A DNA stretch of 64,000 nt from a virus. This document shows, one piece after another, positions 27,680 through 40,254 of the stretch. The stretch lies in IMG/VR virus record IMGVR_UViG_3300042259_000159; one strand, given 5' to 3'. Numbering within the stretch: the stretch's first letter is position 1; every line of letters begins with the position of its first letter. The notes beneath the pieces were generated by a model, which did not search any database, was not told the origin of the DNA, and was given only the letters and a program-made list of their open reading frames with translations. A program made the translations under genes and the position numbers.

Positions 27680-30600
27680 CTAAATGCTTTTATCTACAAA
27701 CTTTCTCTGTGGAAAATCAAATTCCCGCCTTGTTTTATTCCAAGCTTTTACGGGTGTAAAAAACCCAACAACCCTTGTCAGCTGTGTACTTATATCTTCC
27801 GAACATATGGGGCATGTACTGAAGGAACCCATAGAGACATGGGAGTTGATACACTCAGAGTATACGGTATTAATGGCAAAATGTTCACATCCACAACCCA
27901 AAGCAAAACAGATAATTTTCTTGGCCTGCTCTCTTGTCAGCCTCTGCCCGACAGTGGCATGAACAATCCCCCCGCCTGTTAGGTTTTTAGTATATTCTCC
28001 GTCAATTCTGAGCCTGTCCCACAGAGATGCCTCTTCCCACAAAGGAACAAACTGGTTTGCATAGAGAGGGTATTCTATAAAAGTATCGCCGTGAATGATC
28101 TTATCTGCGCTGCAAACTTTTACAGCCATACTCTCTGCTGGGATTTGCTCAATGTTGAAGACATATCCTGCGTTCTTCTTGGTATACAATCTAGCTTTTC
28201 TGTTAAGAAATGTCAAGATCTTTTTCTTCAAATCCCCCTCAACACCGAACCTTTGTTTAAGAACCTTTTCACACTCGTAAAGACCAAGAATACCAAACGT
28301 TGAAAAGAGCCTGTTGAGGTCTATCCACCCACGCGTTATAAAAGGCTGAAGACCTATTTGTTCAAGGACATGAATCAAGACCTTATGAGCAATCAGAATA
28401 TCTTTAGCAGCCTCTACACGGTACGTGTATATTTTCCAAAAATCATCAATACTCTCGGCCTCAATTGCCATCTTGTTGAAATTAAGAGTAACAACTCTAT
28501 GGCTCCCGATGCTGGAAAGAACACCGGCACCGAAAGAATTGGAGGTGGATGCCACATCTAACATCTCTTCATCATTGATCAATCGGCAACAGCTAGCGAT
28601 CTTTGTGCTCTCAGATGTGAAAATATTGTAGCGCGAAATGTCTCTATTAAGAAATATTTCCAAACTCTCTTCGTCTGCAAGGATGTAATCATCGCCGTCC
28701 TTAGTTTTTGAAATGTTCATCGTGCAAACAGGGAACCTGTAAGGCATCCCGTTATTTGAGGGATCTCCTTTATCAAAGATGTCTAGGAATATTTCCTGCA
28801 ATTCAAAAACATAGTCAACACACTCTTCTATATCTACAACACCACCATCTGAAAACATCCACAAAAGATGTTCCTTTATGATGTACCTGAGTTTGTGTTT
28901 ATCAAACACCGATACATTGGTAAAGGGACTCTCAACTCCGTCACGACTCAAATGGTTTACGCTGTGAATAAGCTGTTGAAACTCGTTTTCTATCTCTTTC
29001 CTCACAGCCTTATCGTTTTTAAGCACATCAAGGGGAACCTTATTCTTTATCATGAGAAGGTGAGCAACATCTATAAATACAGTACCTATGGCTAGAGCAC
29101 CAGCAACATGCGATGACATTTGGTGGATTGTCTCACACAGGGCGGCAATATAACTATTAACTCTTTTTGCCGGTTTAGAGGGCAATACTCCAAAAGTTCT
29201 TCCTTCTGTAATGAGATTTGTTGCGTTTAAAGAATAACAATTATGTTGCACCATTCCGTTTGCATAAAAACGGCCCGTTGCTGTTGTCAAATCATATACG
29301 TCTTGAAGCTCCTCTCTAAGCTTTCTTGTACTAGGAATGTCTTCAAGATTAAACCTGATGATTTTTACAACCCTGTTGCTTTCGCCCTTGGTGTTTGCTT
29401 TTTCATTATACTTATCATAGTCTTCTTTATGCATCTTCATCTTATCAGAAAGATCAACCATCTTATTCGTACTTGACGGGACAAAGGAAAGGGCATAAAT
29501 CGAATTAGAAATATCACTCCCTTTTATCCTTTTTCTAAGGCATCGAATACCTTCAATGCCTCTAAGGACGTCATAAAGTGTGTTTATTACTGCCATAGAC
29601 TGCAAACAAATCTCCACCCTGCCATTCTTTTTGTAGGTATATCCGTCCGCGTCTACAAGCCCCGCAACAAGTGCCTCTACAGAATCATTTGTCCAAGAGA
29701 GGATGTTCTTAGGAAGAACCTTTGTGAAGCTATTTTCTTTGTTCCCGAAACCAAAAAAGGCACTTACAAGAAAATTCATATCATAAGAAGACCAATTAAT
29801 CTGTCTCTCGACTTTATCACTGGGCTTAAAAAGATTCGCATCAGGAAACAAGTCTTTTATGATACTATAAATTCTTGAGTTATCAATATCGTTTTGATAA
29901 ACACTGCAAAGCGTTCCCCCTCTTGTAAATCTGAAAGAGCCTTTTATGTCCTTACCGTTCATTACGCCATCATCAACACAATACCCTTCAAAGTTCCCAT
30001 CACCAAGCATAAAGCCAAGAAGGTAGGCCAGCTTTTCTGGAACAATTATTGTTTTTTCCACGGAGGGCAAACAAGTCTCTGTCAAAACAGCATCCCCAAC
30101 AGAAAGTTCTGAGGCTATTTTTTCAGTTCCATCTTCCATATAGATTGGGTGGTTGTCTGTTACCAAAGCAAAGTGCCCTGCCTCTGTCTGATACAAAGAG
30201 AATCCTGTATCCGTTTTATGCTTGATAATACGTTGTACAGCAACCCATCCATTGTTTGTATCCCAAACCTCTATATTAACTTTTTCACTCACATTGCAGG
30301 CCAACTTACCGGAACGACCTTTTGCGGTGTTCTTGTTAGTGATGTTCGCACTCACATTATTACGCAGCATTGCTGTTGTAATCTCTAGATCTCTTGTAAG
30401 GCCTTTTGTGTTAATTTCCTCATGCGTACCCCTATTTTCGGAGTGTATTGCAAACATATTGAAAAGCTTTTTAAGAGGAATACAAATAATCTCTCCGTTA
30501 ATTCTGACAAAAACAGGCGTGTTTCCATAATACGAATATGGAAGGTTTAGCTTCGTGCTGTCGGAGATGGGAAGACTGAAATCCAACATTTCTCCTATAA

Positions 30601-30982
30601 GCCTTTTAGCCCTCTTCTTGCCGTAGAGTTCCTTCATAACACGGTAGAGGAAATCGTACCCTGCAATTTTTTTCTGGGGGGCACTTGCCTCACTCTGTAT
30701 TCCGGCAATTGTCTTCTCATTCTTATTAGCATTGTCATCAATAGAGACATCATTAATGTTTGCATTTAATTGTTTTTGAAACATCTTGAGAAAGTCTGTA
30801 TTGTCCTGCGAAAGACCATGCAGACGCATAAGTTTTTCAGCTTTTGTATCAATCTCTTCTTGAGAAAGGGTTGTTTTACGAGAAAGATTCCTTTTCAAAG
30901 CCTTAAGCATCTGTTTCCGTGTGTATTCAATCTCAGCATCATTTGTAAAAGATGAAGAAAAACCTTTAGCTATGCTATTCAA
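27680..30982 (-). CDS. nrdD: anaerobic ribonucleoside-triphosphate reductase NrdD (class III), interrupted by an intein
   Basis: C-terminal glycyl-radical-like TRVVGFF and CPICS zinc site; long ORF; likely TTG start at 30982 (AAGGAG 9 nt upstream) overlapping the nrdG stop; track ORF extends to 31051. Confidence 0.8.
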   Translation of the reverse strand: MNSIAKGFSSSFTNDAEIEYTRKQMLKALKRNLSRKTTLSQEEIDTKAEKLMRLHGLSQDNTDFLKMFQKQLNANINDVSIDDNANKNEKTIAGIQSEASAPQKKIAGYDFLYRVMKELYGKKRAKRLIGEMLDFSLPISDSTKLNLPYSYYGNTPVFVRINGEIICIPLKKLFNMFAIHSENRGTHEEINTKGLTRDLEITTAMLRNNVSANITNKNTAKGRSGKLACNVSEKVNIEVWDTNNGWVAVQRIIKHKTDTGFSLYQTEAGHFALVTDNHPIYMEDGTEKIASELSVGDAVLTETCLPSVEKTIIVPEKLAYLLGFMLGDGNFEGYCVDDGVMNGKDIKGSFRFTRGGTLCSVYQNDIDNSRIYSIIKDLFPDANLFKPSDKVERQINWSSYDMNFLVSAFFGFGNKENSFTKVLPKNILSWTNDSVEALVAGLVDADGYTYKKNGRVEICLQSMAVINTLYDVLRGIEGIRCLRKRIKGSDISNSIYALSFVPSSTNKMVDLSDKMKMHKEDYDKYNEKANTKGESNRVVKIIRFNLEDIPSTRKLREELQDVYDLTTATGRFYANGMVQHNCYSLNATNLITEGRTFGVLPSKPAKRVNSYIAALCETIHQMSSHVAGALAIGTVFIDVAHLLMIKNKVPLDVLKNDKAVRKEIENEFQQLIHSVNHLSRDGVESPFTNVSVFDKHKLRYIIKEHLLWMFSDGGVVDIEECVDYVFELQEIFLDIFDKGDPSNNGMPYRFPVCTMNISKTKDGDDYILADEESLEIFLNRDISRYNIFTSESTKIASCCRLINDEEMLDVASTSNSFGAGVLSSIGSHRVVTLNFNKMAIEAESIDDFWKIYTYRVEAAKDILIAHKVLIHVLEQIGLQPFITRGWIDLNRLFSTFGILGLYECEKVLKQRFGVEGDLKKKILTFLNRKARLYTKKNAGYVFNIEQIPAESMAVKVCSADKIIHGDTFIEYPLYANQFVPLWEEASLWDRLRIDGEYTKNLTGGGIVHATVGQRLTREQAKKIICFALGCGCEHFAINTVYSECINSHVSMGSFSTCPICSEDISTQLTRVVGFFTPVKAWNKTRREFDFPQRKFVDKSI
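29240..30298 (-). other. intein with LAGLIDADG homing endonuclease domain inside NrdD
   Basis: Hint block B VTDNHPIY; LAGLIDADG motifs LAYLLGFMLGDGNF and LVAGLVDADGY; C-terminal VQHN followed by Cys; N-terminal boundary uncertain (may extend to ~30535). Confidence 0.7.
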
Positions 30983-31490
30983 AGCAGTAAACTCCTTCTT
31001 TTGTAAGTTTAACATAATTATTATTATAAAGTTCTTGGTTAGACGAACCAAGTACGAGTTTTGTCCTTTGCCCTTTTGTTGTATCTGACTGGTGCAGTTC
31101 TTTTATATACTCTCCTGTTTTTATAAATTTGAAACCGTTAAGATTAAGGTATTTAACAGTGTCAATATCGTATCCAGTATAAATACATATGTTAAAACAC
31201 CCACCGTATTGTTCTAAGAACTGTGCTGTAAACCCTCTGTTGCAGGAGGCTAGCGGATCTCCACCAAGAAGTACAATATTATTTGTGCGGTATTTTAAGG
31301 TCTCCTGTTTACAATGGTTGTAGAAGTCTTCAATGGAAAATTCCACACCACCCTGATATTCAGGGTTTTGCAGGGAGGGGTTATGACACCCCTTACAGGA
31401 AAAATCACACCCACACATAAAAAGACTTACTGCCCACCCATCCTTTGAGGGGTAGTCTGTAAATGTCATCTCAGAACCTGCAAATCTCAT
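30975..31490 (-). CDS. nrdG: anaerobic RNR activating enzyme NrdG (radical SAM)
   Basis: CGCDFSCKGC radical SAM-type cysteine motif; adjacent to nrdD. Confidence 0.75.
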   Translation of the reverse strand: MRFAGSEMTFTDYPSKDGWAVSLFMCGCDFSCKGCHNPSLQNPEYQGGVEFSIEDFYNHCKQETLKYRTNNIVLLGGDPLASCNRGFTAQFLEQYGGCFNICIYTGYDIDTVKYLNLNGFKFIKTGEYIKELHQSDTTKGQRTKLVLGSSNQELYNNNYVKLTKEGVYCFE

Positions 31491-31492
31491 TT

Positions 31493-32089
31493 TTATCCTT
31501 CTCTTTCCAGAGCAACATCTATAAGGGATTGGAACTCCGGCGGGAGGCTGTTATACATTTTTTGTGCCATTTCCCTTATTTCCCACTGTGCGTCTTTTGC
31601 CATACGGAGTTTTAGAAAATTGATTAATGCTCTTAGATTCATTGTTACCATAATTTTTGTGGTAGTTGCGTTCGGGAACACAAAACGTGCATCCTCTTTT
31701 TTAACCCCAGCATCAAGCAGGCGATTGTATGTGTCCCATATAACCTCCATTGTATCTTCATAAAGATCACGAATATAGCCATCCTCGTGCTCTGATATGC
31801 TTGGTGGAGTGACATAAGAAGGCTCTTCTGTCTTTACATACCTTTGACTTGCCTGTGTATATGATGCAATACGGTGTCTTACCTGTTGATGTGTTAGTGC
31901 GCGGGATACCCCTGTAATTTCAAAACAAAAAGCAGAATGCTCCACAACACTTTCGTGTCCTTTCTTAATACACTTTTTAACAAGCGCTGTATCACTCGCA
32001 CCCCCATTGTCAGAAACACTTTCATAGGGTATTCTGGCAGCACGACAAATAGTTGTGTATTTCAAACAATCAACAAGTTCTACTTTCAT
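31493..32089 (-). CDS. thyX: flavin-dependent thymidylate synthase ThyX
   Basis: ThyX motif RHRIASYTQASQRY; ATG at 32089 after AAGGAGG. Confidence 0.8.
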   Translation of the reverse strand: MKVELVDCLKYTTICRAARIPYESVSDNGGASDTALVKKCIKKGHESVVEHSAFCFEITGVSRALTHQQVRHRIASYTQASQRYVKTEEPSYVTPPSISEHEDGYIRDLYEDTMEVIWDTYNRLLDAGVKKEDARFVFPNATTTKIMVTMNLRALINFLKLRMAKDAQWEIREMAQKMYNSLPPEFQSLIDVALEREG

Positions 32090-32253
32090 TACGCCTCCTT
32101 TTTTACCCAAGATGTGGGCTTATAATCATTGCCTATTCGGCAGTTTTTACACTCTACCTTCCTGTGGTGTCTATAGGGGCCACTTGCACAGCTTATGCAT
32201 GTAAGATTTGTCTCAACATGCCCACGGTTTTTCCTCTCTACAAAGACATTCAT
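32089..32253 (-). CDS. small zinc-ribbon protein (54 aa)
   Basis: CISC...CKNC; GGAGAAACG RBS; below the ORF-track length cutoff. Confidence 0.3.
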   Translation of the reverse strand: MNVFVERKNRGHVETNLTCISCASGPYRHHRKVECKNCRIGNDYKPTSWVKKEA

Positions 32254-32435
32254 CGTTTCTCCTTTTTGCGTTGATAGGTGAATTTAATATTCCCAACCCT
32301 TGCAGGTATAACACTCTTTTCAATAACACGCCCACATGCCTTTTCAGGAATGGAGAAGGTATCTATAATTTCCCCATTACTATTAAACACCACTATAGTA
32401 TCCACAAAACCCCCTAAAGGCTGAAAAAGCCGCTT

Positions 32436-33410
32436 TTAGCGGCAAAAATAAATGTCTGGTGAGAAGGTTAGAAGATCTTTTGTATGCACTGAGTATGAGA
32501 TATCGTTCAAATCCTGTGCTTCGTGTAAAATATCAAACACAAGGAACCCGAAATCTACTGTTCCAGAACATTTCCTCTCTCCGAAAATTGTCTTTGGACC
32601 TTGAAGAGATGGACAAGACATCGCCATATATTTTGTTGTACTGTTTGCAATGTGGTAGTGAACATGCCCACGGAGAATTACATCGCTTTTAGGCTGCATC
32701 TTTTTCTCTTCCCATAGGCGATTCCAGACATATTCTTTCGAAAGCTGTGTTGCCCTCCCGTGAGGGATTCCACTACTTCCAATGGCATGTCTGAGGTCAA
32801 AAAGAATCCCATTAATATCTACCCACAACCTACCATCAAAAATAGCACCTATCTCTTTAGCTAGAACCTCTTCAAAATCCTCACCACCGGCATATGTATG
32901 GTAACCTGTCCCACCAACTAGAAAAATATTCTTACACGGGATTGAATCGAAGACTTGAACAGCTATATCTACTTGCTCGTTGAGGGATGAGGTTATCAGT
33001 CCATTTCCACCATCCTTAGATGCCTTGCCATCAATTGCATCGCCTATGTGAAAAAGTGCATCGATATGGCCTAAGGATGAAACCCCTGTAGAGAAAAAGT
33101 CCCACATCTCTTCTTGCATAGAGGCAATCTTCTTTCTTTCCTCTTTGCTTCCTCCTTGAACGTTAAACATCCAGTCTGGAGGTGTCAAACCAACCTTACT
33201 TCCGCAGTGGGTATCCGAGATAACCAAAACCCTTGAGAAATCCCTTTTACACCTTTCCTCCTCTTTTTCCCACTTTGTGAGACCCTTATACTTATCCTTA
33301 AGAAAGTCGTGAACAGAAGATTTTGGAACCCCTGTTGCGGCAGAAATCTGCCTTATAGACTTCCCAGCCTTTTGCATTATAAGAGCAACCTCTTTCTGAT
33401 ATTCCTCCAT
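32436..33410 (-). CDS. metallophosphoesterase with N-terminal HTH
   Basis: Calcineurin-like motifs SDTHCG, GDAIDG, GGTGYH, GHVHYH. Confidence 0.65.
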   Translation of the reverse strand: MEEYQKEVALIMQKAGKSIRQISAATGVPKSSVHDFLKDKYKGLTKWEKEEERCKRDFSRVLVISDTHCGSKVGLTPPDWMFNVQGGSKEERKKIASMQEEMWDFFSTGVSSLGHIDALFHIGDAIDGKASKDGGNGLITSSLNEQVDIAVQVFDSIPCKNIFLVGGTGYHTYAGGEDFEEVLAKEIGAIFDGRLWVDINGILFDLRHAIGSSGIPHGRATQLSKEYVWNRLWEEKKMQPKSDVILRGHVHYHIANSTTKYMAMSCPSLQGPKTIFGERKCSGTVDFGFLVFDILHEAQDLNDISYSVHTKDLLTFSPDIYFCR

Positions 33411-33447
33411 CTAACCTCCTTTACTCCTGTTTTTGGGAATAGAAATA

Positions 33448-33486
33448 TGGTACTGGCAGCGGGATTCGAACCCACACTGAAGGGGG
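33448..33486 (-). other. tRNA 3' fragment (T-arm + acceptor 3' strand + CCA)
   Basis: GTGGGTTCGAATCCCGCTGCCAGTACCA; acceptor complements the 5' end ACTGGTA at 34153. Confidence 0.55.
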
Positions 33487-33489
33487 GAT

Positions 33490-33950
33490 TTACTTATCTC
33501 TCTGGTAGTAGTGCTTTGATATTGCACTTCTTTCCATTTTTTGAATTTTTTTATTCTGAACGTCGGACCCATAACGTCCAGAACACGTTCTGGAACAAAA
33601 GGGCCCAGCTTTATTTTTAATGTTTCTCTGTGTCACCGTTGGCGTAAAAAGAGAATCGCAATATGGACACTTTACTTCTTCCACTCTCACCCTTACCACA
33701 TCAAGCGAAGCATGGGAGGATCTACACAAAACTTGTAAATTTTCAATTTTGTTGTTCAGTGGATTTCTATCAATGTGGTCAACTGTCTCAGATGGATCTA
33801 AAACTCTGCCCAGATGCACTTCCATTATAATTCTGGAAGCCTGTTTAGCAGTTCTTTTAATTCCATCATATAAAACAATGACCAGTCTACCGTCTTTCCT
33901 TAAATATGGCCCATAAATTTTTTTACACTCTGGGTACAATTTTTGAATGT
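33490..33950 (-). CDS. HNH homing endonuclease
   Basis: HIDRNPLNNKIENLQVLCRSSH; track ORF extends to 34023 but that overlaps tRNA-Leu, so the start is uncertain. Confidence 0.6.
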
Positions 33951-33953
33951 GTT

Positions 33954-34037
33954 TGGTAGGAGAAGAGAGATTCGAACTCTCAAGGAATAATCCGTCGAGG
34001 CTTAAACTCGATGTGTTTACCATTTCACCATTCTCCC
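33954..34037 (-). tRNA. tRNA-Leu (anticodon UAA), type II, CCA encoded
   Basis: Manual fold: acceptor GGGAGAA/TTCTCCT, anticodon loop TTTAAGC, long variable arm, T-loop TTCGAAT. Confidence 0.65.
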
Positions 34038-34045
34038 GTATTTTT

Positions 34046-34067
34046 TATCTACCATTCCGCCATTCCC
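34046..34067 (-). other. orphan tRNA 5' fragment (Leu-like acceptor + D-arm)
   Basis: GCGGGAATGGCGGAATGGTAGA with no matching 3' half. Confidence 0.4.
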
Positions 34068-34076
34068 GCATTTATT

Positions 34077-34153
34077 TGGTACCCACTGTGAGATTCGAAC
34101 CCACACTAATCAGTTTCTAAGACTGATGCCTCTGCCAAGTTGGGCTATACCAG
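34077..34153 (-). tRNA. tRNA-like gene (class I, anticodon UAG) with mismatched acceptor stem; probably chimeric or disrupted
   Basis: D-arm, anticodon arm TCAGT-CTTAGAA-ACTGA and T-arm fold, but 5' ACTGGTA does not pair with 3' AGTGGGT. Confidence 0.4.
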
Positions 34154-34184
34154 TATTATGCTTATTATTTTATTTTGAAAGGCC

Positions 34185-34235
34185 ATATGTATACACATAT
34201 ATATATATACATATATATATGTATAGAGCAACCAA
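34185..34235. repeat. TA-rich microsatellite
   Basis: atatgtatacacatatatatatatacatatatatatgtatag. Confidence 0.8.
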
Positions 34236-34412
34236 AATGGTTAAATAAAAAGGTGTTTTGTGGAGACACCAAACTCCTCCAGTTTTAGTGATCTGGAAAC
34301 AATAAGCGGCGCAGGTGCTCTTTAAAACACGTGCTACCAAGCGTATAAATTGTCTAGGGGATTTCACCAAACACATTATGTTATTGGAGGGATCTTTCCC
34401 TAGACTCAGTAA

Positions 34413-34485
34413 AGCTCCTGACAGGACTTGAACCCGCAACCGGCTGATTACAAATCAGCTGCTCTGCCAGTTGAGCTACAGGAGC
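34413..34485 (-). tRNA. tRNA-Thr (anticodon UGU), CCA not encoded
   Basis: Manual fold: acceptor GCTCCTG/CAGGAGC, D-arm GCTC..GAGC, anticodon loop TTTGTAA. Confidence 0.7.
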
Positions 34486-34489
34486 AGAA

Positions 34490-34561
34490 CAGAGGGAGAA
34501 GGATTCGAACCTTCGAATGACGGGACCAAAACCCGTTGCCTTACCGCTTGGCTACCCCTCT
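34490..34561 (-). tRNA. tRNA-Gln (anticodon UUG), CCA not encoded
   Basis: Manual fold: acceptor AGAGGGG/TCCCTCT, anticodon stem ACGGG/CCCGT, loop TTTTGGT. Confidence 0.65.
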
Positions 34562-34569
34562 AAATTTTT

Positions 34570-34646
34570 TGGCTCCGGCGGCAGGATTTGAACCTACATT
34601 CGCAATGGTTAACAGCCATTTGCCTTACCAATTCGGCGACACCGGA
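34570..34646 (-). tRNA. tRNA-Asn (anticodon GUU), CCA encoded
   Basis: Manual fold: acceptor TCCGGTG/CGCCGGA, anticodon stem AATGG/CCATT, loop CTGTTAA. Confidence 0.65.
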
Positions 34647-34691
34647 ATGAACTTTTTATTTGTTATCAGCATTGTTTTGCTTTATTTTAAA

Positions 34692-34770
34692 TGGTCTCGG
34701 TGATTAGATTTGAACTAATGATTATTCCTGCTCCCAAAGCAGGTGCCATACCAAGCTAGGCGACACCGAG
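34692..34770 (-). tRNA. tRNA-Pro (anticodon UGG), CCA encoded
   Basis: Manual fold: acceptor CTCGGTG/CACCGAG perfect, anticodon stem CCTGC/GCAGG, loop TTTGGGA. Confidence 0.6.
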
Positions 34771-35251
34771 ATCAGGTGTGGTACCAAACTCCACTATGGG
34801 CAGAGGTTATAAGAAGGTCCGTACATGATATAGACAGATATTCTTCCATAACAGCGGTACGGACGCTGTCTCATTTTTATATCTTTCAGTGTGCTATTAC
34901 GCCAAAGGGAAATTAAGCCTTACCAGTTACGGGGTGCCCTTTTACTATCCACAAAGAATTTCAAATCGCGTGCATTCTAAGTATCGGAAAATTCTACAAC
35001 CACTTAAAGTACACCTCGTTTAAGAGATAGCGACCTGTGCTTCGTCCCACTCTTTAAAGGATGGCTGCCTCAAAGCCCACCTCCTGAAAAATGCATGAAG
35101 GATTATCCCTCCTTCGCTAAATACAACCTATCAATTTTAAGGGTTCTTGTCAAGAACATTTTAAGGTTTTTGAAATTTTTGTTGAACGCTGATTTGCTAC
35201 GCGGGTACAGCGTTCGAAACCTCGATAGCATCCTTGCCGTTGGCAAAGCTG

Positions 35252-35393
35252 TCAGGAGCCGCAGGAGGAGAATTGAACTCCTCTGGCATCAACACGCAGT
35301 CACCACAACTACATCTACCGTTACGGGTATGGCTCCCCATCCTAGTCACCTGTTGATACCTTATAGGTTCAGCCCTACCAAGGGCACTGCGGC
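35252..35393 (-). ncRNA. tRNA-like structured RNA (~142 nt) with 7-bp acceptor-like stem and T-arm; possible intron-containing or disrupted tRNA
   Basis: GCCGCAG ... GAGGAGTTCAATTCTCCTC CTGCGGC; body too long for a standard tRNA. Confidence 0.3.
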
Positions 35394-35399
35394 TTAAGT

Positions 35400-35620
35400 G
35401 GGTTGGTTGGTGCAGATTGTGAACGTACCCCCGCCTATAGAGGCGGAAGCTTCCTGCTTCAGCGAGAACAGCACCAGTAACTCCGAAGAGTTGTGGCGAA
35501 TTACACTCTCTCCACAGGCGTAAATTCCCGTGCGACCCACGGTACTTTATGAGTTACGCTAGGCAGATATTCGCCCAGCTTCTTCTCTAATATTTATTGC
35601 AGCGTTCTTGTCACGGTTAT
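35400..35620 (-). ncRNA. putative TnpB guide (omega) RNA region overlapping the tnpB 3' end and right end
   Basis: Position relative to tnpB; subterminal hairpin CCGCC-tataga-GGCGG at 35431-35446; no direct RNA evidence. Confidence 0.35.
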
Positions 35621-36795
35621 GATGACTGCCACACTTAAGGCAATCCCATTCCCGCACAGACAAGTCTTTGGTATCCTTGTTCTGGTAGCCACAGACATGG
35701 CATAGCTGACTGCTTGGATACCATTTGTCTATCTTGATAAGTTGCTTACCCTGCCATGCAAGTTTGTATTTCAGCATACTTGTGAACATGCTCCAGCCGT
35801 TGTCGGATATGGATTTACCAAAGTTGAACTTGCCACCCTTCTTTCGCTTCGCCATGTCCTTTACGCTAATGTCCTCTATGCCAATCACATCATAGCGGTC
35901 TGCAAGATAACGAGCTTTCTTATGCAGGAAGTCGCGGCGTTGATTAGCAATTTTCTCATGGAGTACAGCCAAACGTAGTCTTTGTTTATTCCTATTACGG
36001 CTCCCTTTTTGTCTCTTGGAGAGTTTTCTTTGTGCCTTGATCAATCTCTTTTCGGCTTCCCGTAAGAAATTTGGATAATCGGCGTTGTCCTCATCGGAAG
36101 CAACATACATCCCGTGCATAGCAAAATCCAATCCAAGAAAATTCTTCGGTATGATGGGAAGTATTTGGTTTTCATACTCCACCAAAATACTAATATAGTA
36201 TTTTCCTGACGGTGTTTTACTTATGGTTACAGTCTTTATGGTGCTATTCTCCATCAATGGACGATGCAGACACAGCTTTACCCAACCTATTTTCGGCAGC
36301 TTGACTTTGTTTCCCTCGATTCTTACAGAGCCATGTTGGTTGTTCGTAGAATATGAAGCATGACCCGCTTTCTTCGACTTGAAGCGTGGCTTGCAAAAAT
36401 GCTTCCTATTGCTCCAAAAGTTGTTATACGCCTTGTTCAGGTTTATTTGGGCATTGGCGAGAGCAAGGCTGTCAACCTCTTTCAGCCAAGGAAACTCTTT
36501 CTTGTACTGTGCAGGTGTGTTGTTCAGCCTCTCTCCTGTTTCCTTATAGTGATCAAGACGATCTCCAAGCATCTTGTTATAGATGAATCTGGCACTGCCG
36601 AAAGTCTTGGCAAACATAATCTTCTGTTCAATTGTCGGGTAGAGTCTATATCGGTATGCCTTATTCACTATAATCACCTGCCTTGATTTTCTATGTATTT
36701 ACGAATTGTCTCAAACGGAGCAATTATCTGGCTCAACTACTTACGTAAATTCGCTAGACACACCTTCATCCCCCACCTTAGAGGTGGAGGGCTTC
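35425..36795 (-). mobile_element. IS200/IS605-family element, TnpB-only (IS1341-like)
   Basis: tnpB ORF flanked by similar subterminal hairpins at 36773-36787 and 35431-35446; no tnpA seen. Confidence 0.7.
35559..36677 (-). CDS. tnpB: TnpB (IS200/IS605 OrfB, RuvC-like RNA-guided nuclease)
   Basis: N-terminal YRYRLYPT; C-terminal zinc finger CHVCG...CLKCG; 372 aa. Confidence 0.85.
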   Translation of the reverse strand: MIIVNKAYRYRLYPTIEQKIMFAKTFGSARFIYNKMLGDRLDHYKETGERLNNTPAQYKKEFPWLKEVDSLALANAQINLNKAYNNFWSNRKHFCKPRFKSKKAGHASYSTNNQHGSVRIEGNKVKLPKIGWVKLCLHRPLMENSTIKTVTISKTPSGKYYISILVEYENQILPIIPKNFLGLDFAMHGMYVASDEDNADYPNFLREAEKRLIKAQRKLSKRQKGSRNRNKQRLRLAVLHEKIANQRRDFLHKKARYLADRYDVIGIEDISVKDMAKRKKGGKFNFGKSISDNGWSMFTSMLKYKLAWQGKQLIKIDKWYPSSQLCHVCGYQNKDTKDLSVREWDCLKCGSHHNRDKNAAINIREEAGRISA

Positions 36796-36799
36796 TGGC

Positions 36800-36843
36800 G
36801 GGTTAGGTTAAATCCCTTGTGTCTACTAATTCCACCAATCGGG
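36800..36843 (-). other. partial tRNA-Leu-like 5' fragment next to the IS left end
   Basis: GCCCGATTGGTGGAATTAGTAGACAC duplicates the 5' end of tRNA-Leu at 36940 but lacks a foldable remainder. Confidence 0.4.
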
Positions 36844-36853
36844 CTAAAATCTT

Positions 36854-36940
36854 TGGTGCCCAATGCAGGACTCGAACCTGCACGCCATTTCAGGCAGGAG
36901 GGCTTAAACCTCGTGTGTCTACCAATTCCACCAATCGGGC
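36854..36940 (-). tRNA. tRNA-Leu (anticodon UAA), type II, CCA encoded
   Basis: Manual fold: acceptor GCCCGAT/ATTGGGC, anticodon loop TTTAAGC, long variable arm. Confidence 0.6.
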
Positions 36941-36949
36941 TAAAATCTT

Positions 36950-37033
36950 TGGTGCCTCAGACAGGATTCGAACCTGCACGGATCTCTCCACTTGGTCCTA
37001 AGCCAAGCGTGTCTGCCATTCCACCACTGAGGC
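36950..37033 (-). tRNA. tRNA-Leu (anticodon UAG), type II, CCA encoded
   Basis: Manual fold: acceptor GCCTCAG/CTGAGGC perfect, anticodon stem CTTGG/CCAAG, loop CTTAGGA. Confidence 0.65.
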
Positions 37034-37477
37034 TGAAATTTTAATTAAAGTTTGACATACTCCCCACGGATAAATCCGGGGGATTCTGGATTCAAACAGC
37101 AACGGCGGGTGCAAGCACCCTTCTGTCTGTCATTGAGGCAGTCGCCTTAGAACCAGCCGCTGCACCGAACTCGCTACCGCTGGGCGCTCTGCAAGAACAC
37201 ACTCCCAGATATGTATGCCAATAGCAATTTTTGTCATGTTTCATGTTTACCTCCGCTCGCAGGTGAGCTATTCGTTATATGTCGTAAAATTCATGGCTCG
37301 TGTATTTGCACGGGATTACCCCATGCAAAACGTGCAGGAAGGCAAGCACAGCCTGACGCACGGCCTCCCTTAATGCCTTTTTTGCTACGGCAAAATTCGC
37401 CATCATGTGCTTAAAATAGATCATCATATAACCAGTCAATCAACCGGATTTGCTATGCTCTCCGGTTATTTCGGTCG

Positions 37478-37888
37478 TTAGCCTTCCATCGCCAGCTTGA
37501 TTGCCCGGCGAACTTTCCCAAAATCGTGAATCGAAAACAGGCATCCGCCGAAATTATACCGGCAGACCATCTCCGCATCCAGCCAGCGCAACACCTCCAG
37601 CATTTCAGGGGCGGCTGCAATAAGTTTGGCGTTGGCCTCCATGATTGGCACGCGTCCTTGCACGCCACGGGCAGAGGTTGCACATACCGGGTTGCCGTTG
37701 CAATCCTCTACTATCAACCGGCCTTTTCGGTCCGGCACAACTCCGGCAGTAACCGACCACGGGCCGGGACTATGCACAGGATAATCTTCCCTGTTGTAGG
37801 CTGTTTTCCCATCCGTTATAATTGTCGGCGTTTCGCTATCTTTGCAAACCTTTCCCCGATATGTATTTCCGTCACCGTAGCTATTCAT
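37478..37888 (-). CDS. hypothetical protein
   Basis: ORF track; appears GC-richer than the phage backbone. Confidence 0.4.
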   Translation of the reverse strand: MNSYGDGNTYRGKVCKDSETPTIITDGKTAYNREDYPVHSPGPWSVTAGVVPDRKGRLIVEDCNGNPVCATSARGVQGRVPIMEANAKLIAAAPEMLEVLRWLDAEMVCRYNFGGCLFSIHDFGKVRRAIKLAMEG

Positions 37889-38115
37889 TGGTGTTATCTC
37901 CTTCTTCGGCCATTATTCTTAAAAATTCTTCAAAGTTGTATGCGGCCTTATTCGTCATCTCTATACACCTCCACTTGCTCATGTGATTGTCGGAAACTTT
38001 CGGCAACTTTTTCGGCGACATCTTTTGTCATTAGGCCAGTCCTATACCACTCTCCGGCTTGTTCGTTAATCCATCTCCAGTATTTCACTCGATAATTAAC
38101 ATTTTTTGGCATTGT

Positions 38116-38382
38116 CTATCTCCTCCGCAAGTTGCGCTCTCTGGTCAAGCCACCATTTTTTTCTGACACGTCTTTGTCTCTTTCAATCGTGTAGAGAAGG
38201 TTTTCGGATTTGTCTATCAATTCCTGTAATTGATGATATATTTTCCGGTATTCGTCGTGCGAAATATCCAAAAGTTCCCGCATTCCGTCTCTGGTATTCT
38301 TAAACAACAAGCAATCTGCATCACCACGAGAAAGGCCAAGGTTTGCTTCCATATAATTAAACGGGCAAACAGGCTTTTTCAT
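38116..38382 (-). CDS. hypothetical protein
   Basis: ORF track. Confidence 0.35.
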   Translation of the reverse strand: MKKPVCPFNYMEANLGLSRGDADCLLFKNTRDGMRELLDISHDEYRKIYHQLQELIDKSENLLYTIERDKDVSEKNGGLTRERNLRRR

Positions 38383-38639
38383 GTTGTCTCCTTTATTTCT
38401 TCAATAAGTGTTTCCAGGTCTGAACACTCCTGCTCAAGTGCCTTGTGCAGTGCTTTATTCTCATGAGCACCTTGCATTTCCGAGTACAGCCGCCCGAGCA
38501 ACGATGCTTCCAAGTATGGCAAAACCCTTTTCAACAGTTCACCTCGCAACAAATTTTCAGTAACCTGCTTTTCTTGGTGGTTCTTCATCAGGCAAGAACC
38601 GCAAATAATATTCTCGCTGTGGTTACAGGACGTTATCAT
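38379..38639 (-). CDS. hypothetical protein
   Basis: Overlapping start/stop with neighbours. Confidence 0.35.
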   Translation of the reverse strand: MITSCNHSENIICGSCLMKNHQEKQVTENLLRGELLKRVLPYLEASLLGRLYSEMQGAHENKALHKALEQECSDLETLIEEIKETT

Positions 38640-38878
38640 ACAAACCCCTCAAAATAGCATAACGGCAGCCAACCCCGAATAAGGTGCGTGTCGTGACCAT
38701 CTATCAAGAACCTATCTTCACAACATATCCAATCATACTCGCCGTCGTCTTTCGCGTCGTTCTCCGGAGCAACATTAGAAAACCACGCACTACAAACTGT
38801 TCCGTCATGCAAAAACAACAATATCTGCTGACCGTTTGTCGGTAGTGTTTCCGGGCCATTCAATCGTATTTGATTCAT
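38636..38878 (-). CDS. hypothetical protein
   Basis: ORF track. Confidence 0.35.
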   Translation of the reverse strand: MNQIRLNGPETLPTNGQQILLFLHDGTVCSAWFSNVAPENDAKDDGEYDWICCEDRFLIDGHDTHLIRGWLPLCYFEGFV

Positions 38879-39088
38879 TTACAGTCCTCCAAATGTATTT
38901 TCCATTGCCGTAAACCCGCAGCCTTTTCCATCTGCAAGCGTTTCAACTGCGGCATTAAAACCACGGACGAACGCCGGTGGCGGGTCCGGTATGTCGTCAT
39001 CGTCAGTACCCCAATACTTACGCCAGCTATCCATCATCGTTTTGTTAATCATTTCACTCATCTTCAAAGCCCTCCACGTGCAAATCAT
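38879..39088 (-). CDS. hypothetical protein
   Basis: ORF track. Confidence 0.35.
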   Translation of the reverse strand: MICTWRALKMSEMINKTMMDSWRKYWGTDDDDIPDPPPAFVRGFNAAVETLADGKGCGFTAMENTFGGL

Positions 39089-39544
39089 TGCTCAGATCCA
39101 AGTCAACAAACACCTGCGCCGGTTCCTCTTCCTCGCCGTAATTACCCGATTGCCTGACGGGGCCGGTGAGTATTCTGATGTCTCTTATCATGCATAACAA
39201 CTGTGATCCGTCGAAAGAGAGATTAAACAGCTGAGACAGTTATGCAGGCGTTAACGTTCTTATTATATAGCACAGGAGAAACACTTTGTCAAGCTTTTTA
39301 TAAAACTATTTTAAAAAAGAACTGTTTCGCTGTACATAATTCTGACTTAAGGCCTAGAACAAATAGTAAAACCGGAGGAGGAGCTTCTTTTCATCTAGGA
39401 TGTGACTTCCATGTCTGATAGGCTTTCCGGCGTGTTAAGAAGAATATAACAAACAACACAGGCCTTGTCAAGTGTTTTCTTACATCCCTTATGAGACTCC
39501 TTATTGTTTATATCACAACACCCTGCTGTCATTGCTTCTTCCTC

Positions 39545-40254
39545 TTAGATAGTAAACAGTTTTTCAACACCTTTCTTGCTTCCCGTGTTCTTTGTCAGGC
39601 TGCTTACAATTTCTTTTTTCCAAATGCAAGTAAAATCTTCTGGAGCATTATATTCTGAAACAAACACCTTATGTCCCTCATTAGCCTTATCTCTGCACCA
39701 CTGCCAAAACAACTCATGGTCAAAATCATTAGAGTACTTTGTTGTCCCTGAATAGGGCGGATCACAGTAGATTAAGCTGTTACTGGGGATATGTAGCTCA
39801 TCATAAGGACAACACAAAAATTCTACATTTTGAATTAGCGAGGACTGTTTTATTGCTGATTGCTTACTACGTTTTGTTTGTATTATCATGTTTTCAATAT
39901 CACCTTTTGTTCCTGCTTTGTCCCGCCTATACCCCCCAAAAAATTTACCACCAAAAGACATTGAAAATGCTGTAAATCCAGTTAAACCATCAATATTTTT
40001 GTGTTTTTTCATTGAATTGTACATATCTTCTGTAATAATTTCAGGAATACTTTTTGGTGCATCGCGTATAAGTTTTAATGCTTCTATTACATACGGGCTG
40101 CAATGGCGGCCCCAATACGATTCCCATCAACCTTATCAATCATGTTTCCACCTCCAACAAACGGTTCAACCCACCACTGGTCAGGTTTTCTTTCTGCAAG
40201 CATAATTGGGAGGATATACTTTGCTATTCTGTTTTTACTTCCCATGTATTTCAT
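39545..40254 (-). pseudogene. dam: Dam-like DNA adenine methyltransferase, frameshifted
   Basis: N-terminal part (MKYMGSKNRIA...EPFVGGG) ends at TAA 40091-40093; C-terminal part with IYCDPPY continues in another frame; frames overlap over a CCC run. Confidence 0.65.

Follow-up and report, generated by a model that had tools for sequence, protein, structure and literature searches.

This report concerns a locus in the IMG/VR virus record IMGVR_UViG_3300042259_000159, analysed as a stretch of 64,000 nt (the window, to which all coordinates refer as a whole). It belongs to the 91.6-kb IMG/VR phage contig 3300042267_000152. Within a cluster of tRNA genes, all of which lie on the minus strand near this locus, a tRNA-Leu gene has been disrupted, its true 3′ end now lying some 650 bp from its 5′ part, as shown by the poor pairing of the sequence now adjacent and by a relative carrying the uninterrupted gene. 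A complete tRNA-Leu(UAA) and a gene for an HNH endonuclease lie in between. We consider it likely that the locus is the footprint of a homing-endonuclease cassette specific for tRNA-Leu genes, which would carry a spare tRNA (the cargo tRNA) instead of an intron. The observations behind this reading are the anatomy of the locus, the empty site in the relative, further copies of the cassette in contexts unrelated to one another, covariation within the cargo tRNA, and the linkage of the HNH family to tRNA-Leu genes.

The outer, broken tRNA comprises the following parts.

34154-34077, minus strand: hybrid tRNA-like unit, from the 5′ body through CCA (sequence reading, ARAGORN, Rfam)
34126-34154, minus strand: resident 5′ part of a tRNA-Leu with a short variable arm, namely acceptor strand ACTGGTA (34154-34148), TA, the D arm GCCC-AACTTGGCAG-AGGC, A26 and T27; 29 of 29 nt match the relative L006
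34077-34125, minus strand: 3′ two-thirds of a short-arm tRNA-Leu(UAG), probably imported, from the rest of the anticodon arm to ACCA
34119-34117, minus strand: UAG anticodon, in the anticodon arm TCAGT-CTTAGAA-ACTGA; this is followed by the proximal variable loop TTAGT (5 nt), the T arm GTGGG-TTCGAAT-CTCAC, and AGTGGGT-ACCA ending at 34077
34092-34107, minus strand: direct repeat copy A, AGTGTGGGTTCGAATC, covering the end of the variable loop, the 5′ strand of the T stem and the T loop of the hybrid
33463-33478, minus strand: direct repeat copy B, AGTGTGGGTTCGAATC
33448-33475, minus strand: stranded resident 3′ end, with T arm GTGGG-TTCGAAT-CCCGC, TGCCAGT and ACCA; 7 of 7 positions pair with ACTGGTA

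An earlier interpretation of this DNA, made from its letters and open reading frames (ORFs) without database searches (the sequence-only reading), had proposed that ACTGGTA finds its only good partner, TGCCAGT followed by ACCA, some 650 bp away. This is correct: the distal strand (33458-33452, with ACCA reaching 33448) forms six Watson-Crick pairs and one G-U pair with it, versus two Watson-Crick pairs, three G-U pairs and two mismatches for the adjacent AGTGGGT, rightly described as a poor partner. The 5′ body is also where that reading had placed it, except that it starts at 34154 and not at 34153. No intact canonical tRNA was recovered at 34077-34153, nor at the full 34077-34154, by ARAGORN, whose sole call there was truncated (a bogus 69-nt tRNA-Leu(tag) at 34077-34145). 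The Rfam tRNA score of the hybrid unit was 37.8 bits, obtained via an alternative acceptor and without a proper D arm, versus 48-66 bits for the neighbouring tRNAs. When the 5′ body and the distal 3′ end were fused across the repeat, a canonical 78-nt tRNA was predicted by ARAGORN. The unit 34154-34077 is probably a hybrid pseudo-tRNA, in which a resident 5′ part is joined to a probably imported 3′ part of a tRNA-Leu(UAG). Eight ARAGORN tRNA calls fall within 33954-37033, so that the cassette sits in a tRNA cluster.

The identical structure was present in assemblies of three further samples (L113-L115), and an assembly artefact or chimera is excluded, since the same structure was assembled from four samples independently. 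A reading of the anticodon loop on the plus strand as that of an amber suppressor was rejected, the plus strand having no D-arm or T-arm features of a tRNA. Between the tRNA-Thr and the broken tRNA lies an AT-rich palindromic (TA/TG)n stretch (34179-34230), also present in the relative with a 2-nt length difference, which gave spurious matches to microRNA families in Rfam.

The relative, IMG/VR record 3300036466_000329 (L004/L006), matches the window in DNA at 93% identity on the upstream side and at 98% where the downstream gene begins; over the 47 residues covered by its contig, the neighbouring 324-aa protein is 98% identical. At the site of the broken gene it has an uninterrupted 79-nt short-arm tRNA-Leu(UAA) (L006 1128-1206), which reads ACTGGTA TA GCCC AACTTGGCAG AGGC A TAGCA CTTAAAA TGCTA AAAGGT GTGGG TTCGAAT CCCAC TACCAGT ACCA. 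Its first 29 nt are identical to 34154-34126 of the window, the homology ending exactly at 34126, and its T arm, 3′ acceptor strand and about 15 nt of 3′ flank are those of the distal fragment of the window, apart from two A-to-G differences. Its UAA anticodon arm, by contrast, is unrelated to the UAG arm of the window (by ARAGORN, a 5-bp versus a 6-bp stem and a 6-nt versus a 5-nt loop), and nothing similar to it was found elsewhere in the window. Because the relative shares only the first 29 nt and the T arm with the 3′ end, a replacement is indicated rather than a point insertion. On the simplest account of the alignment, a resident short-arm tRNA-Leu(UAA) lost its tRNA positions 30-48 and received in their place about 650 bp of foreign DNA, which starts within the anticodon arm of a different short-arm tRNA, a tRNA-Leu(UAG).

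This modifies the sequence-only reading at several points. A simple insertion of about 610 bp gives way to the replacement of an anticodon arm by about 650 bp. The 5′ body, taken as resident over its whole length, was probably for the greater part imported from a donor tRNA-Leu(UAG), since the anticodon arm of L006 is unrelated. An uninterrupted version of the gene does exist in a relative, where that reading had suggested looking for it, but it is not the repeat-collapsed form of the window. The direct repeats in the T arm exist (34107-34092 and 33478-33463), with an exact length of 16 nt and not 17 bp. The T arms of the other window tRNAs have at least 3 mismatches to the 16-mer, and 0.38 matches with up to 3 mismatches are expected by chance. 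As a sequence flanking the insert the repeat stands; as a target duplication it does not, three other copies of the cassette having no flanking repeat. Moreover, just before GTGTGGG the distal copy has AG where the relative has GG, so that the repeat starts (..CAGT) with bases of the cassette tail and not of a duplicated target. Judged by these alignments, the 16-nt repeat behaves as T-arm homology of two related tRNA-Leu genes that would have been used in recombination, rather than as a target-site duplication.

The breakpoints could be placed differently. The resident gene could have been a short-arm tRNA-Leu(UAG) including the whole present 5′ body, the foreign segment, composed of a donor tRNA 3′ end, the stub, the tRNA-Leu(UAA) and the HNH gene, having entered by two crossovers, each in a T loop, with the 16-nt sequence left on either side; the cause would still be a homing cassette, and only the breakpoints would differ. 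This alternative, which we regard as possible but doubtful, accounts for the canonical 78-nt tRNA(UAG) given by ARAGORN when the repeats are collapsed, for the identity of the two copies over 16 nt where other T arms of the window differ at 3 positions or more, and for the G-U pair in the proximal T stem GTGGG/CTCAC, expected if a resident 5′ strand faces a foreign 3′ strand; a T-loop crossover does also occur in another copy of the cassette, L116. However, it needs an extra swap of the anticodon arm, since L006 has a UAA arm with another stem and variable loop, and yet 29 flanking nt that are 100% identical. The AG versus GG difference, which makes the start of the repeat cassette tail, also goes against it.

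The segment between the two outer tRNA parts is composed as follows.

34070-34076, minus strand: inter-tRNA spacer AATAAAT, 7 nt, taken as donor-derived (sequence reading)
34048-34069, minus strand: 22-nt stub GCGGGAATGGCGGAATGGTAGA, that is GCGGGAA TG GCGG AATGGTAGA, the 5′ end of a class II tRNA-Leu
34038-34047, minus strand: left spacer of the cassette, TAAAAAATAC, 10 nt, homologous to ATAAAAGATAAG/A in L116 and L118
33954-34037, minus strand: cargo class II tRNA-Leu(UAA), 84 nt, CCA encoded (ARAGORN; Rfam 57.3 bits)
33490-33939, minus strand: ORF of an HNH (His-Me finger) endonuclease, 149 aa, probable TTG start (Pfam, PHROG)
33479-33489, minus strand: cassette tail after the HNH stop codon, ATCCCCCCTTC, 11 nt, aligning with the tails of L110, L116 and L118

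The mobile unit proper, of about 570-590 bp, comprises the short spacer, the class II tRNA-Leu(UAA), the HNH gene and the short tail. It was found again in L110-112, L116/117 and L118, at 83-90% DNA identity over about 580-625 bp and with dissimilar flanks, these three sister contexts sharing no other similarity with the window or with one another. The close HNH homologs were traced to contigs (P0002/P0003, 91% identity; P0004, 82%). In each sister context the unit is enclosed by tRNA stubs.

L116/117: 5′ stub ACGGGTA TG TCGG AATGGTAGAC; 3′ stub ..TTCGAGT CTCTC TACCCGT ACCA
L118: 5′ stub GCCCGAG TG GTGG AATTGGTAGA; 3′ stub ACCGG TTCAATC CCGGC CTTGGGC ACCA
L110-112: 5′ stub CGGGGTA TA GCCG AACTGGTAGAG; 3′ stub GTGGG TTCGAGT CCCAC TACCCCG ACCA

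The 5′ stub ends after ..GGTAGA, its acceptor sequence differing from context to context, and the 3′ stub consists of the T arm and the acceptor strand. The acceptor halves are complementary (ACGGGTA/TACCCGT in L116, GCCCGAG/CTTGGGC in L118, CGGGGTA/TACCCCG in L110), and the outer tRNA has no anticodon arm in L110, L116 and L118. In L116 the 5′ strand of the T stem, GCCGG, resembles the cassette end in L118 and does not pair with CTCTC, so that the crossover must have been within the T loop. The window departs from this pattern: its cassette-adjacent stub GCGGGAA mismatches the 3′ stub TGCCAGT, whose match is instead the 5′ end of the next gene upstream. Such a mismatch is expected if the left crossover lay further out in the donor. 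On the L110 contig, with its 82%-identical cassette, a 91-nt tRNA (125-215) with a UUA anticodon, of the ochre-suppressor type, was called by ARAGORN, a sign that this phage may reassign or suppress stop codons.

The cargo tRNA is conserved over the four contexts at 78 of 84 nt, and the six variable sites are both sides of acceptor pairs 4:69, 6:67 and 7:66, with all changes compensatory. As variation is confined to such pairs, the comparison argues that the cargo tRNA is under selection. It has a G1-U72 pair and an unusual anticodon loop, UUUAAGC (G37, C38), where UUR-reading tRNAs usually carry A37 A38; the same loop is found in the other tRNA-Leu(UAA) of the window (36940-36854), and may bear on nuclease resistance or modification. 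The cargo tRNA may additionally have been selected as nuclease-resistant or defence-evading, as proposed for other phage tRNAs.

The sequence-only reading had noted an orphan Leu-like 5′ fragment; the fragment is there and is more than incidental, and in the three other copies of the cassette a 5′ stub ends at the same place. It stops right after the D loop and has the sequence of nt 1-22 of a class II tRNA-Leu(CAG) that is intact on a 411-kb jumbo-phage contig (L124 7962-8044), and is read as the left half of the previous host tRNA of the cassette. The equivalent of the 7-nt spacer in Felix O1-like phages is AATTAAT, and Felixounavirus phages have a similar layout (short-arm tRNA-Leu(UAG), 7-nt AT spacer, next tRNA), with about 80% identity to 34051-34149. 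The cassette tail resembles TAA followed by AATCCCTCCAGT in L157 and L140, whose outer tRNA is split in the anticodon loop, and is probably a remnant of the 3′ strand of the anticodon stem and of the variable region of an earlier host tRNA. In L140, L157 and L204 the HNH stop codon is followed by AATCCCT.., and the window tail ATCCCCCCTTCAGT looks like a decayed version of this type of tail. A promoter and terminator scan of 33300-35100 remained at background level. In four related IMG/VR loci (L175, L181, L188 and L196) the stretch separating the inner tRNA-Leu(UAA) from the outer 5′ stub contains a near-consensus TTGACA-17-TATAAT promoter, some 60 nt ahead of this tRNA, which suggests that some related cassettes come with a promoter of their own; the window cassette has no evident one.

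The sequence-only reading had recognised the HNH ORF and the complete tRNA-Leu(UAA) between the repeats, and Pfam (HNH_3), ARAGORN and Rfam agree with it. The protein matches HNH_3 (PF13392) at 39 bits, for a cut-off of 24.8 (E = 6e-10), and PHROG 14913 ‘HNH endonuclease’ (E = 2e-20); the JGI gene call gives the same 149-aa product (P0001). The HNH_3 domain is followed by a C-terminal CxxC...CxxxC zinc finger, with no GIY-YIG domain among the Pfam matches. The active-site residues D54, H55, N67 and H76, as well as the zinc-binding C91, C94, C115 and C119, are invariant in 8 homologs of 49-91% identity. A sequence search of the PDB gave no match at E ≤ 1. The cassette is mobile in that it is missing from the relative L006 and present in four unrelated contexts. 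The protein is assigned to the HNH_3 family of His-Me finger endonucleases on the basis of its domain, its conserved residues and this mobility.

It is the only domain-bearing ORF of the insert, which encodes no integrase and no transposase. This bears on another explanation of the locus, an integrase-type att core in the T loop or a transposon with a target duplication of 16-17 bp. Direct repeats do flank the insert, and tRNA T loops are classic att sites. Yet the sole ORF is the 149-aa HNH_3 protein, the proximal repeat copy does not restore a tRNA, its 3′ end mispairing with the 5′ acceptor, other cassette copies are not flanked by repeats, and the empty site indicates a replacement and not a duplication; we find this explanation hardly credible.

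The relatives of the HNH protein are linked to tRNA-Leu. All 8 distant homologs (45-53% identity) whose contigs were examined lie in or beside tRNA-Leu genes. In L119, L125 and L127 the HNH gene is between two tRNA-Leu(UAA) exons, with a group-I-like core after the ORF; among these an Rfam group I match was obtained solely for L125/L126 (46 bits, below the gathering score of 50). In L121 and L123 it is directly upstream of an intron-bearing tRNA-Leu; the intron of L123 scores 79.9 bits in Rfam, and that of L121 was read by eye, because the contig ends inside the putative intron. In L122, L128 and L129 the HNH gene and a spare tRNA-Leu(UAA) are nested in a split outer tRNA-Leu. L140, L157 and L204 (HNH identity 42-48%) have the gene order of the window, that is outer 5′ stub, inner tRNA-Leu(UAA), HNH and outer 3′ part, and their outer tRNA is cut in the anticodon loop.

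A profile-based scan of IMG/VR provided 79 further HNH loci. A complete tRNA-Leu on the same strand was found within 100 nt of the ORF in 47 of them (44 UAA; 23 upstream, 26 downstream), and 51 of the 65 tRNAs located within this distance were tRNA-Leu. Stubs with 7 of 7 complementary acceptor positions spanned the HNH gene in 23 of the 79 loci, versus none of 79 in a reverse-strand control. Among 20 loci scanned with Rfam, 6 had a group I match directly after the HNH gene, and 4 of these reached the gathering score (L142, 64.8 bits; L134, 62.4; L139, 59.7; L202, 51.3), L167 and L206 falling below. Among cultured phages, the HNH gene abuts a tRNA-Leu(UAA) in two lineages, PVP-SE1-like Salmonella phages and Klebsiella phage KP13-16. 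A subfamily of 40-46% identity (L008-L031), to which most matches of the first protein search of IMG/VR belonged, was set aside as different: its reading frames run past the match and lie 0.3-2.7 kb downstream of other tRNAs (mostly tRNA-Gln) or have none in the flank, and no flanking tRNA stubs were found.

Two of these loci have further features. L125 (about 1050-2100; NCBI JBFDQW010002355.1) shows a triple nesting: the HNH gene is in the 46-bit group I intron, the intron is inside a tRNA-Leu(UAA) (GCCTGGA../TCCAGGC), and this gene in turn occupies the anticodon loop of a further, split tRNA outside it (GCCCGGG../CCCGGGC). In Salmonella phage vB_Sen_SG_WM_RUS_R7, which is PVP-SE1-like (L131 1150-1725), a 5′ stub, GCGTCCT TG GTCC AATCTGGTAGA GGC AT, abuts the HNH ATG, and the HNH 3′ end overlaps a tRNA-Leu(UAA); the stub end ..GGCAT is at the tRNA position of the homology breakpoint in the window.

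Recombination among the similar tRNAs of an array, with no role for the endonuclease, would make the HNH gene and the tRNA-Leu(UAA) passengers and the stubs by-products. Phage tRNA arrays are known to be recombination-prone, T-loop and D-loop microhomology is available without a nuclease, and the window has a further tRNA duplication beside a TnpB element. Still, array recombination seems improbable to us, for one unit of 570-590 bp recurs with constant ends in four unrelated contexts, and the enclosing or adjoining tRNA is a tRNA-Leu in the great majority of HNH relatives (31-99% identity), intron-encoded ones included. Such tRNA-Leu specificity fits a site-specific homing enzyme and not random array shuffling.

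The outer acceptor halves are still perfectly complementary, here and in many sister loci, and distant HNH relatives do occupy genuine group I introns of tRNA-Leu. Both facts could point to a functional interrupted tRNA, the insert of about 650 nt being removed from the RNA by self-splicing, or by processing and ligation. We judge this very improbable. No group I or II intron signal was found in 30000-40000 by Rfam at E ≤ 1, nor any other structured RNA in the insert at the same threshold, and the non-coding space in the cassette, about 35 nt in total, is too small for a ribozyme core. The 5′ body continues into a T arm and CCA of its own, and no outer tRNA can be rebuilt in L110, L116 and L118, because their outer halves have no anticodon arm. 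On inspection, neither a motif of the bulge-helix-bulge (BHB) type nor complementary leaders were apparent. The same lack of an anticodon arm in the sister outer halves, and the T arm and CCA of the 5′ part in the window, led us to reject a split or permuted tRNA of the archaeal type. A group I intron in the anticodon loop was rejected as well: it would be inserted at 34/35 between complete exons, and the junctions of the window are at 29/30 and between variable loop and T arm.

The preferred reading, that of a tRNA-Leu-specific homing cassette, can be put as a sequence of steps. Upon co-infection with a cassette-bearing phage, the HNH enzyme would break the tRNA-Leu gene of a cassette-free genome, and the break would be resected, then repaired from the donor. 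As donor and recipient tRNAs are only partly alike, the crossovers would take place in conserved tRNA segments, the D arm or D loop on the left and the T loop on the right. The recipient would lose its anticodon arm, while its acceptor halves would survive as a stub on either side of the cassette; the cargo tRNA-Leu(UAA), itself presumably resistant, would supply the decoding function of the destroyed anticodon. In the window, the recipient would have been the short-variable-arm tRNA-Leu(UAA), and the left crossover would have been displaced upstream by one gene, to the D arm of a short-arm tRNA-Leu(UAG) of the donor. With the crossover there, the 3′ two-thirds of the donor tRNA-Leu(UAG), the spacer and the old 22-nt stub would have been co-converted, leaving the hybrid pseudo-tRNA at 34154-34077 and the stranded 3′ end at 33475-33448.

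Several points weigh against this reading. We infer the cleavage site and target specificity of the enzyme, and the tRNA-Leu species that it would cleave, from genomic context alone. For the HNH ORF, the start codon is TTG and a Shine-Dalgarno sequence is not obvious. The sister contexts are mostly short contigs from metagenomes, without host assignment. There is a single empty-site relative, and the difference in its anticodon arm could reflect a separate event; in addition, the window lacks, at 33420-33447, about 945 bp that L006 (152-1095) has between the tRNA and the downstream 324-aa gene, which means that more than one rearrangement separates the two. Finally, the direct donor, in which a tRNA-Leu(UAG) of the ACCCACT../AGTGGGT type would be followed by the cassette in a GCGGGAA../TTCCCGC tRNA, was in no collection searched. 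Pattern searches of IMG/VR (donor-type 3′ end, UAG anticodon arm, core of the cargo tRNA) returned only the contig of the window itself, two scans of GTDB genomes gave no match, a metagenome scan with the D-arm pattern gave no tRNA of the ACTGGTA or ACCCACT type, and among 50,697 phage records blastn matched 33000-35000 over tRNA-sized stretches only, with no close cultured relative.

Other elements were noted around the locus and in the relative. The stretch of about 945 bp in L006 holds a gene that is seemingly split in two ORFs and has a PAPS_reduct domain, matched by its N-terminal part in Pfam with E = 1.9e-10. A second nuclease-driven element in a tRNA-Leu(UAA) is found in both genomes (window 35424-36940, with a TnpB ORF at 35559-36677 on the minus strand; L006 2787-4262). 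In L006, the anticodon loop of a class II tRNA-Leu(UAA) is the exact site of this IS200/IS605-type TnpB element, which lies between ..CGAGG TTTAA and GCCCTCC...; TTTAA would be a flank resembling a target-adjacent motif (TAM), and the omega-RNA guide, after the right end ..GTACGTTCAC, would equal the 3′ half of the tRNA. The window has an intact copy of this target tRNA (36940-36854) just upstream of a diverged 5′ half (36834-36798) and the element. The tRNA 3′ half after the element, with about 370 bp in all (L006 2470-2836), is missing there, and as a result the intact copy would have lost its match to the guide. At 35451-35518 there is a weak RAGATH-18-like match (27 bits).

tRNAs of 75-80 nt that combine a short variable loop with the D arm TAGCCCAACTTGGCAGAGGCA form a widespread family, found by a D-arm scan in metagenome contigs (L059-L109); members include L001 1527-1603 (Salmonella phage BPSELC-1) and L006 1128-1206. 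Bacterial tRNA-Leu normally has a long variable arm. The anticodons of the family are leucine ones only (CAG, UAG, UAA, GAG, CAA, AAG) in 39 of 42 distinct metagenomic examples, with A73 in most of the examples listed. Felix O1-like phages have three short-arm tRNA-Leu genes.

In homing, an allele free of endonuclease is cut, resected and repaired from an endonuclease-bearing genome, with co-conversion of the flanks. T4 SegB is a free-standing GIY-YIG homing endonuclease of the T4/T6 tRNA cluster (PMC2330249, PMC13096335). It cuts tRNA genes, in which it recognises the motif GGTTCRANTCC of the T loop, and in homing it takes flanking tRNA genes along (PMC2330249). The rearrangements it drives need UvsX/UvsY and use microhomology, and it remodels phage tRNA loci, allowing escape from tRNA-cleaving defences (PMC13096335). 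The same logic would apply to the window cassette, with a tRNA-Leu gene as target and conserved tRNA architecture as the shared homology. In both systems a nuclease gene lies amid phage tRNA genes and moves with a tRNA, always a tRNA-Leu(UAA) in the window cassette; and the tRNA and nuclease units are of similar size (718 bp for T6 tRNA-Tyr and segB). A target inside tRNA genes and rearrangement through short homologies would be further likenesses; the SegB target contains a T-loop motif, and the right-hand junctions in or beside the T loop in the window and L116 may hint at recognition of this motif here as well. However, the window enzyme is of the HNH_3 and not of the GIY-YIG type. Whereas SegB lies between intact tRNAs and has no isotype preference, the HNH family is linked to tRNA-Leu, UAA in most cases, and its cassette is inside a broken tRNA gene and carries a replacement.

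The T5 F-Tfl ORFs are absent from close relatives of that phage. As cited in PMC2330249, F-TflI/II/IV are HNH endonuclease ORFs in the tRNA gene region of T5. They are alike by description, as HNH-type ORFs in a phage tRNA cluster; unlike the window cassette, they are not described as nested in split tRNAs or tied to one isotype. Group I introns in tRNA anticodon loops encode homing endonucleases, examples being the tRNA-Leu(UAA) intron and I-Ssp6803I in tRNA-fMet. The HNH family and the target class are the same here, the gene being intron-borne in L119, L125, L127, L134, L139, L142 and L202, and the cassettes of L122, L140 and L157 interrupt their outer tRNA in the anticodon loop, near the classical intron site. 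The window cassette, in contrast, has no ribozyme, and its host gene is destroyed and replaced by a second copy instead of being spliced. Cyanophage psbA F-CphI is an example of intronless homing. Free-standing endonucleases also take part in intronless or collaborative homing in T4 (mobE/I-TevIII; PMC2790892), and in fractured genes an endonuclease gene physically splits the host gene (PMC2677866). As in these cases, the endonuclease spreads outside an intron of its own and a second device preserves host function; unlike in them, this device would be a whole spare RNA gene, and not a target-disrupting intron or split inteins.

A cassette of nuclease and spare tRNA nested in its broken target tRNA was not found described in the literature outside subscription journals. 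Taken alone, the locus is an ordinary-looking scar; the family-wide pattern is specific and apparently undescribed. Homing endonucleases normally spare the host gene, by residing in self-splicing introns, in inteins or at intergenic positions. The present cassettes would apparently follow a third route, in which the target RNA gene is broken and a working copy is delivered in the same unit of about 0.6 kb. Joining the intron-borne and the intron-free loci, we would give about even chances to a broader proposal, that the HNH family is specialised on tRNA-Leu(UAA) and has two interchangeable, cost-free routes, a group I intron or a spare tRNA. The spare-tRNA form would destroy and replace its target in one step; the universally conserved D and T loops would serve as portable homology arms, permitting jumps among non-orthologous tRNA-Leu genes and unrelated phages, and the jumps would leave nested scars of the type ‘tRNA inside broken tRNA’. 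If confirmed, the third route would explain many of the tRNA fragments and pseudo-tRNAs of phage arrays that annotation pipelines miscall, and would show how tRNA genes shuttle between unrelated phages. It would also provide a natural series of intron-borne and intron-free forms for one nuclease family and one target, and a compact, possibly tRNA-gene-specific nuclease to study.

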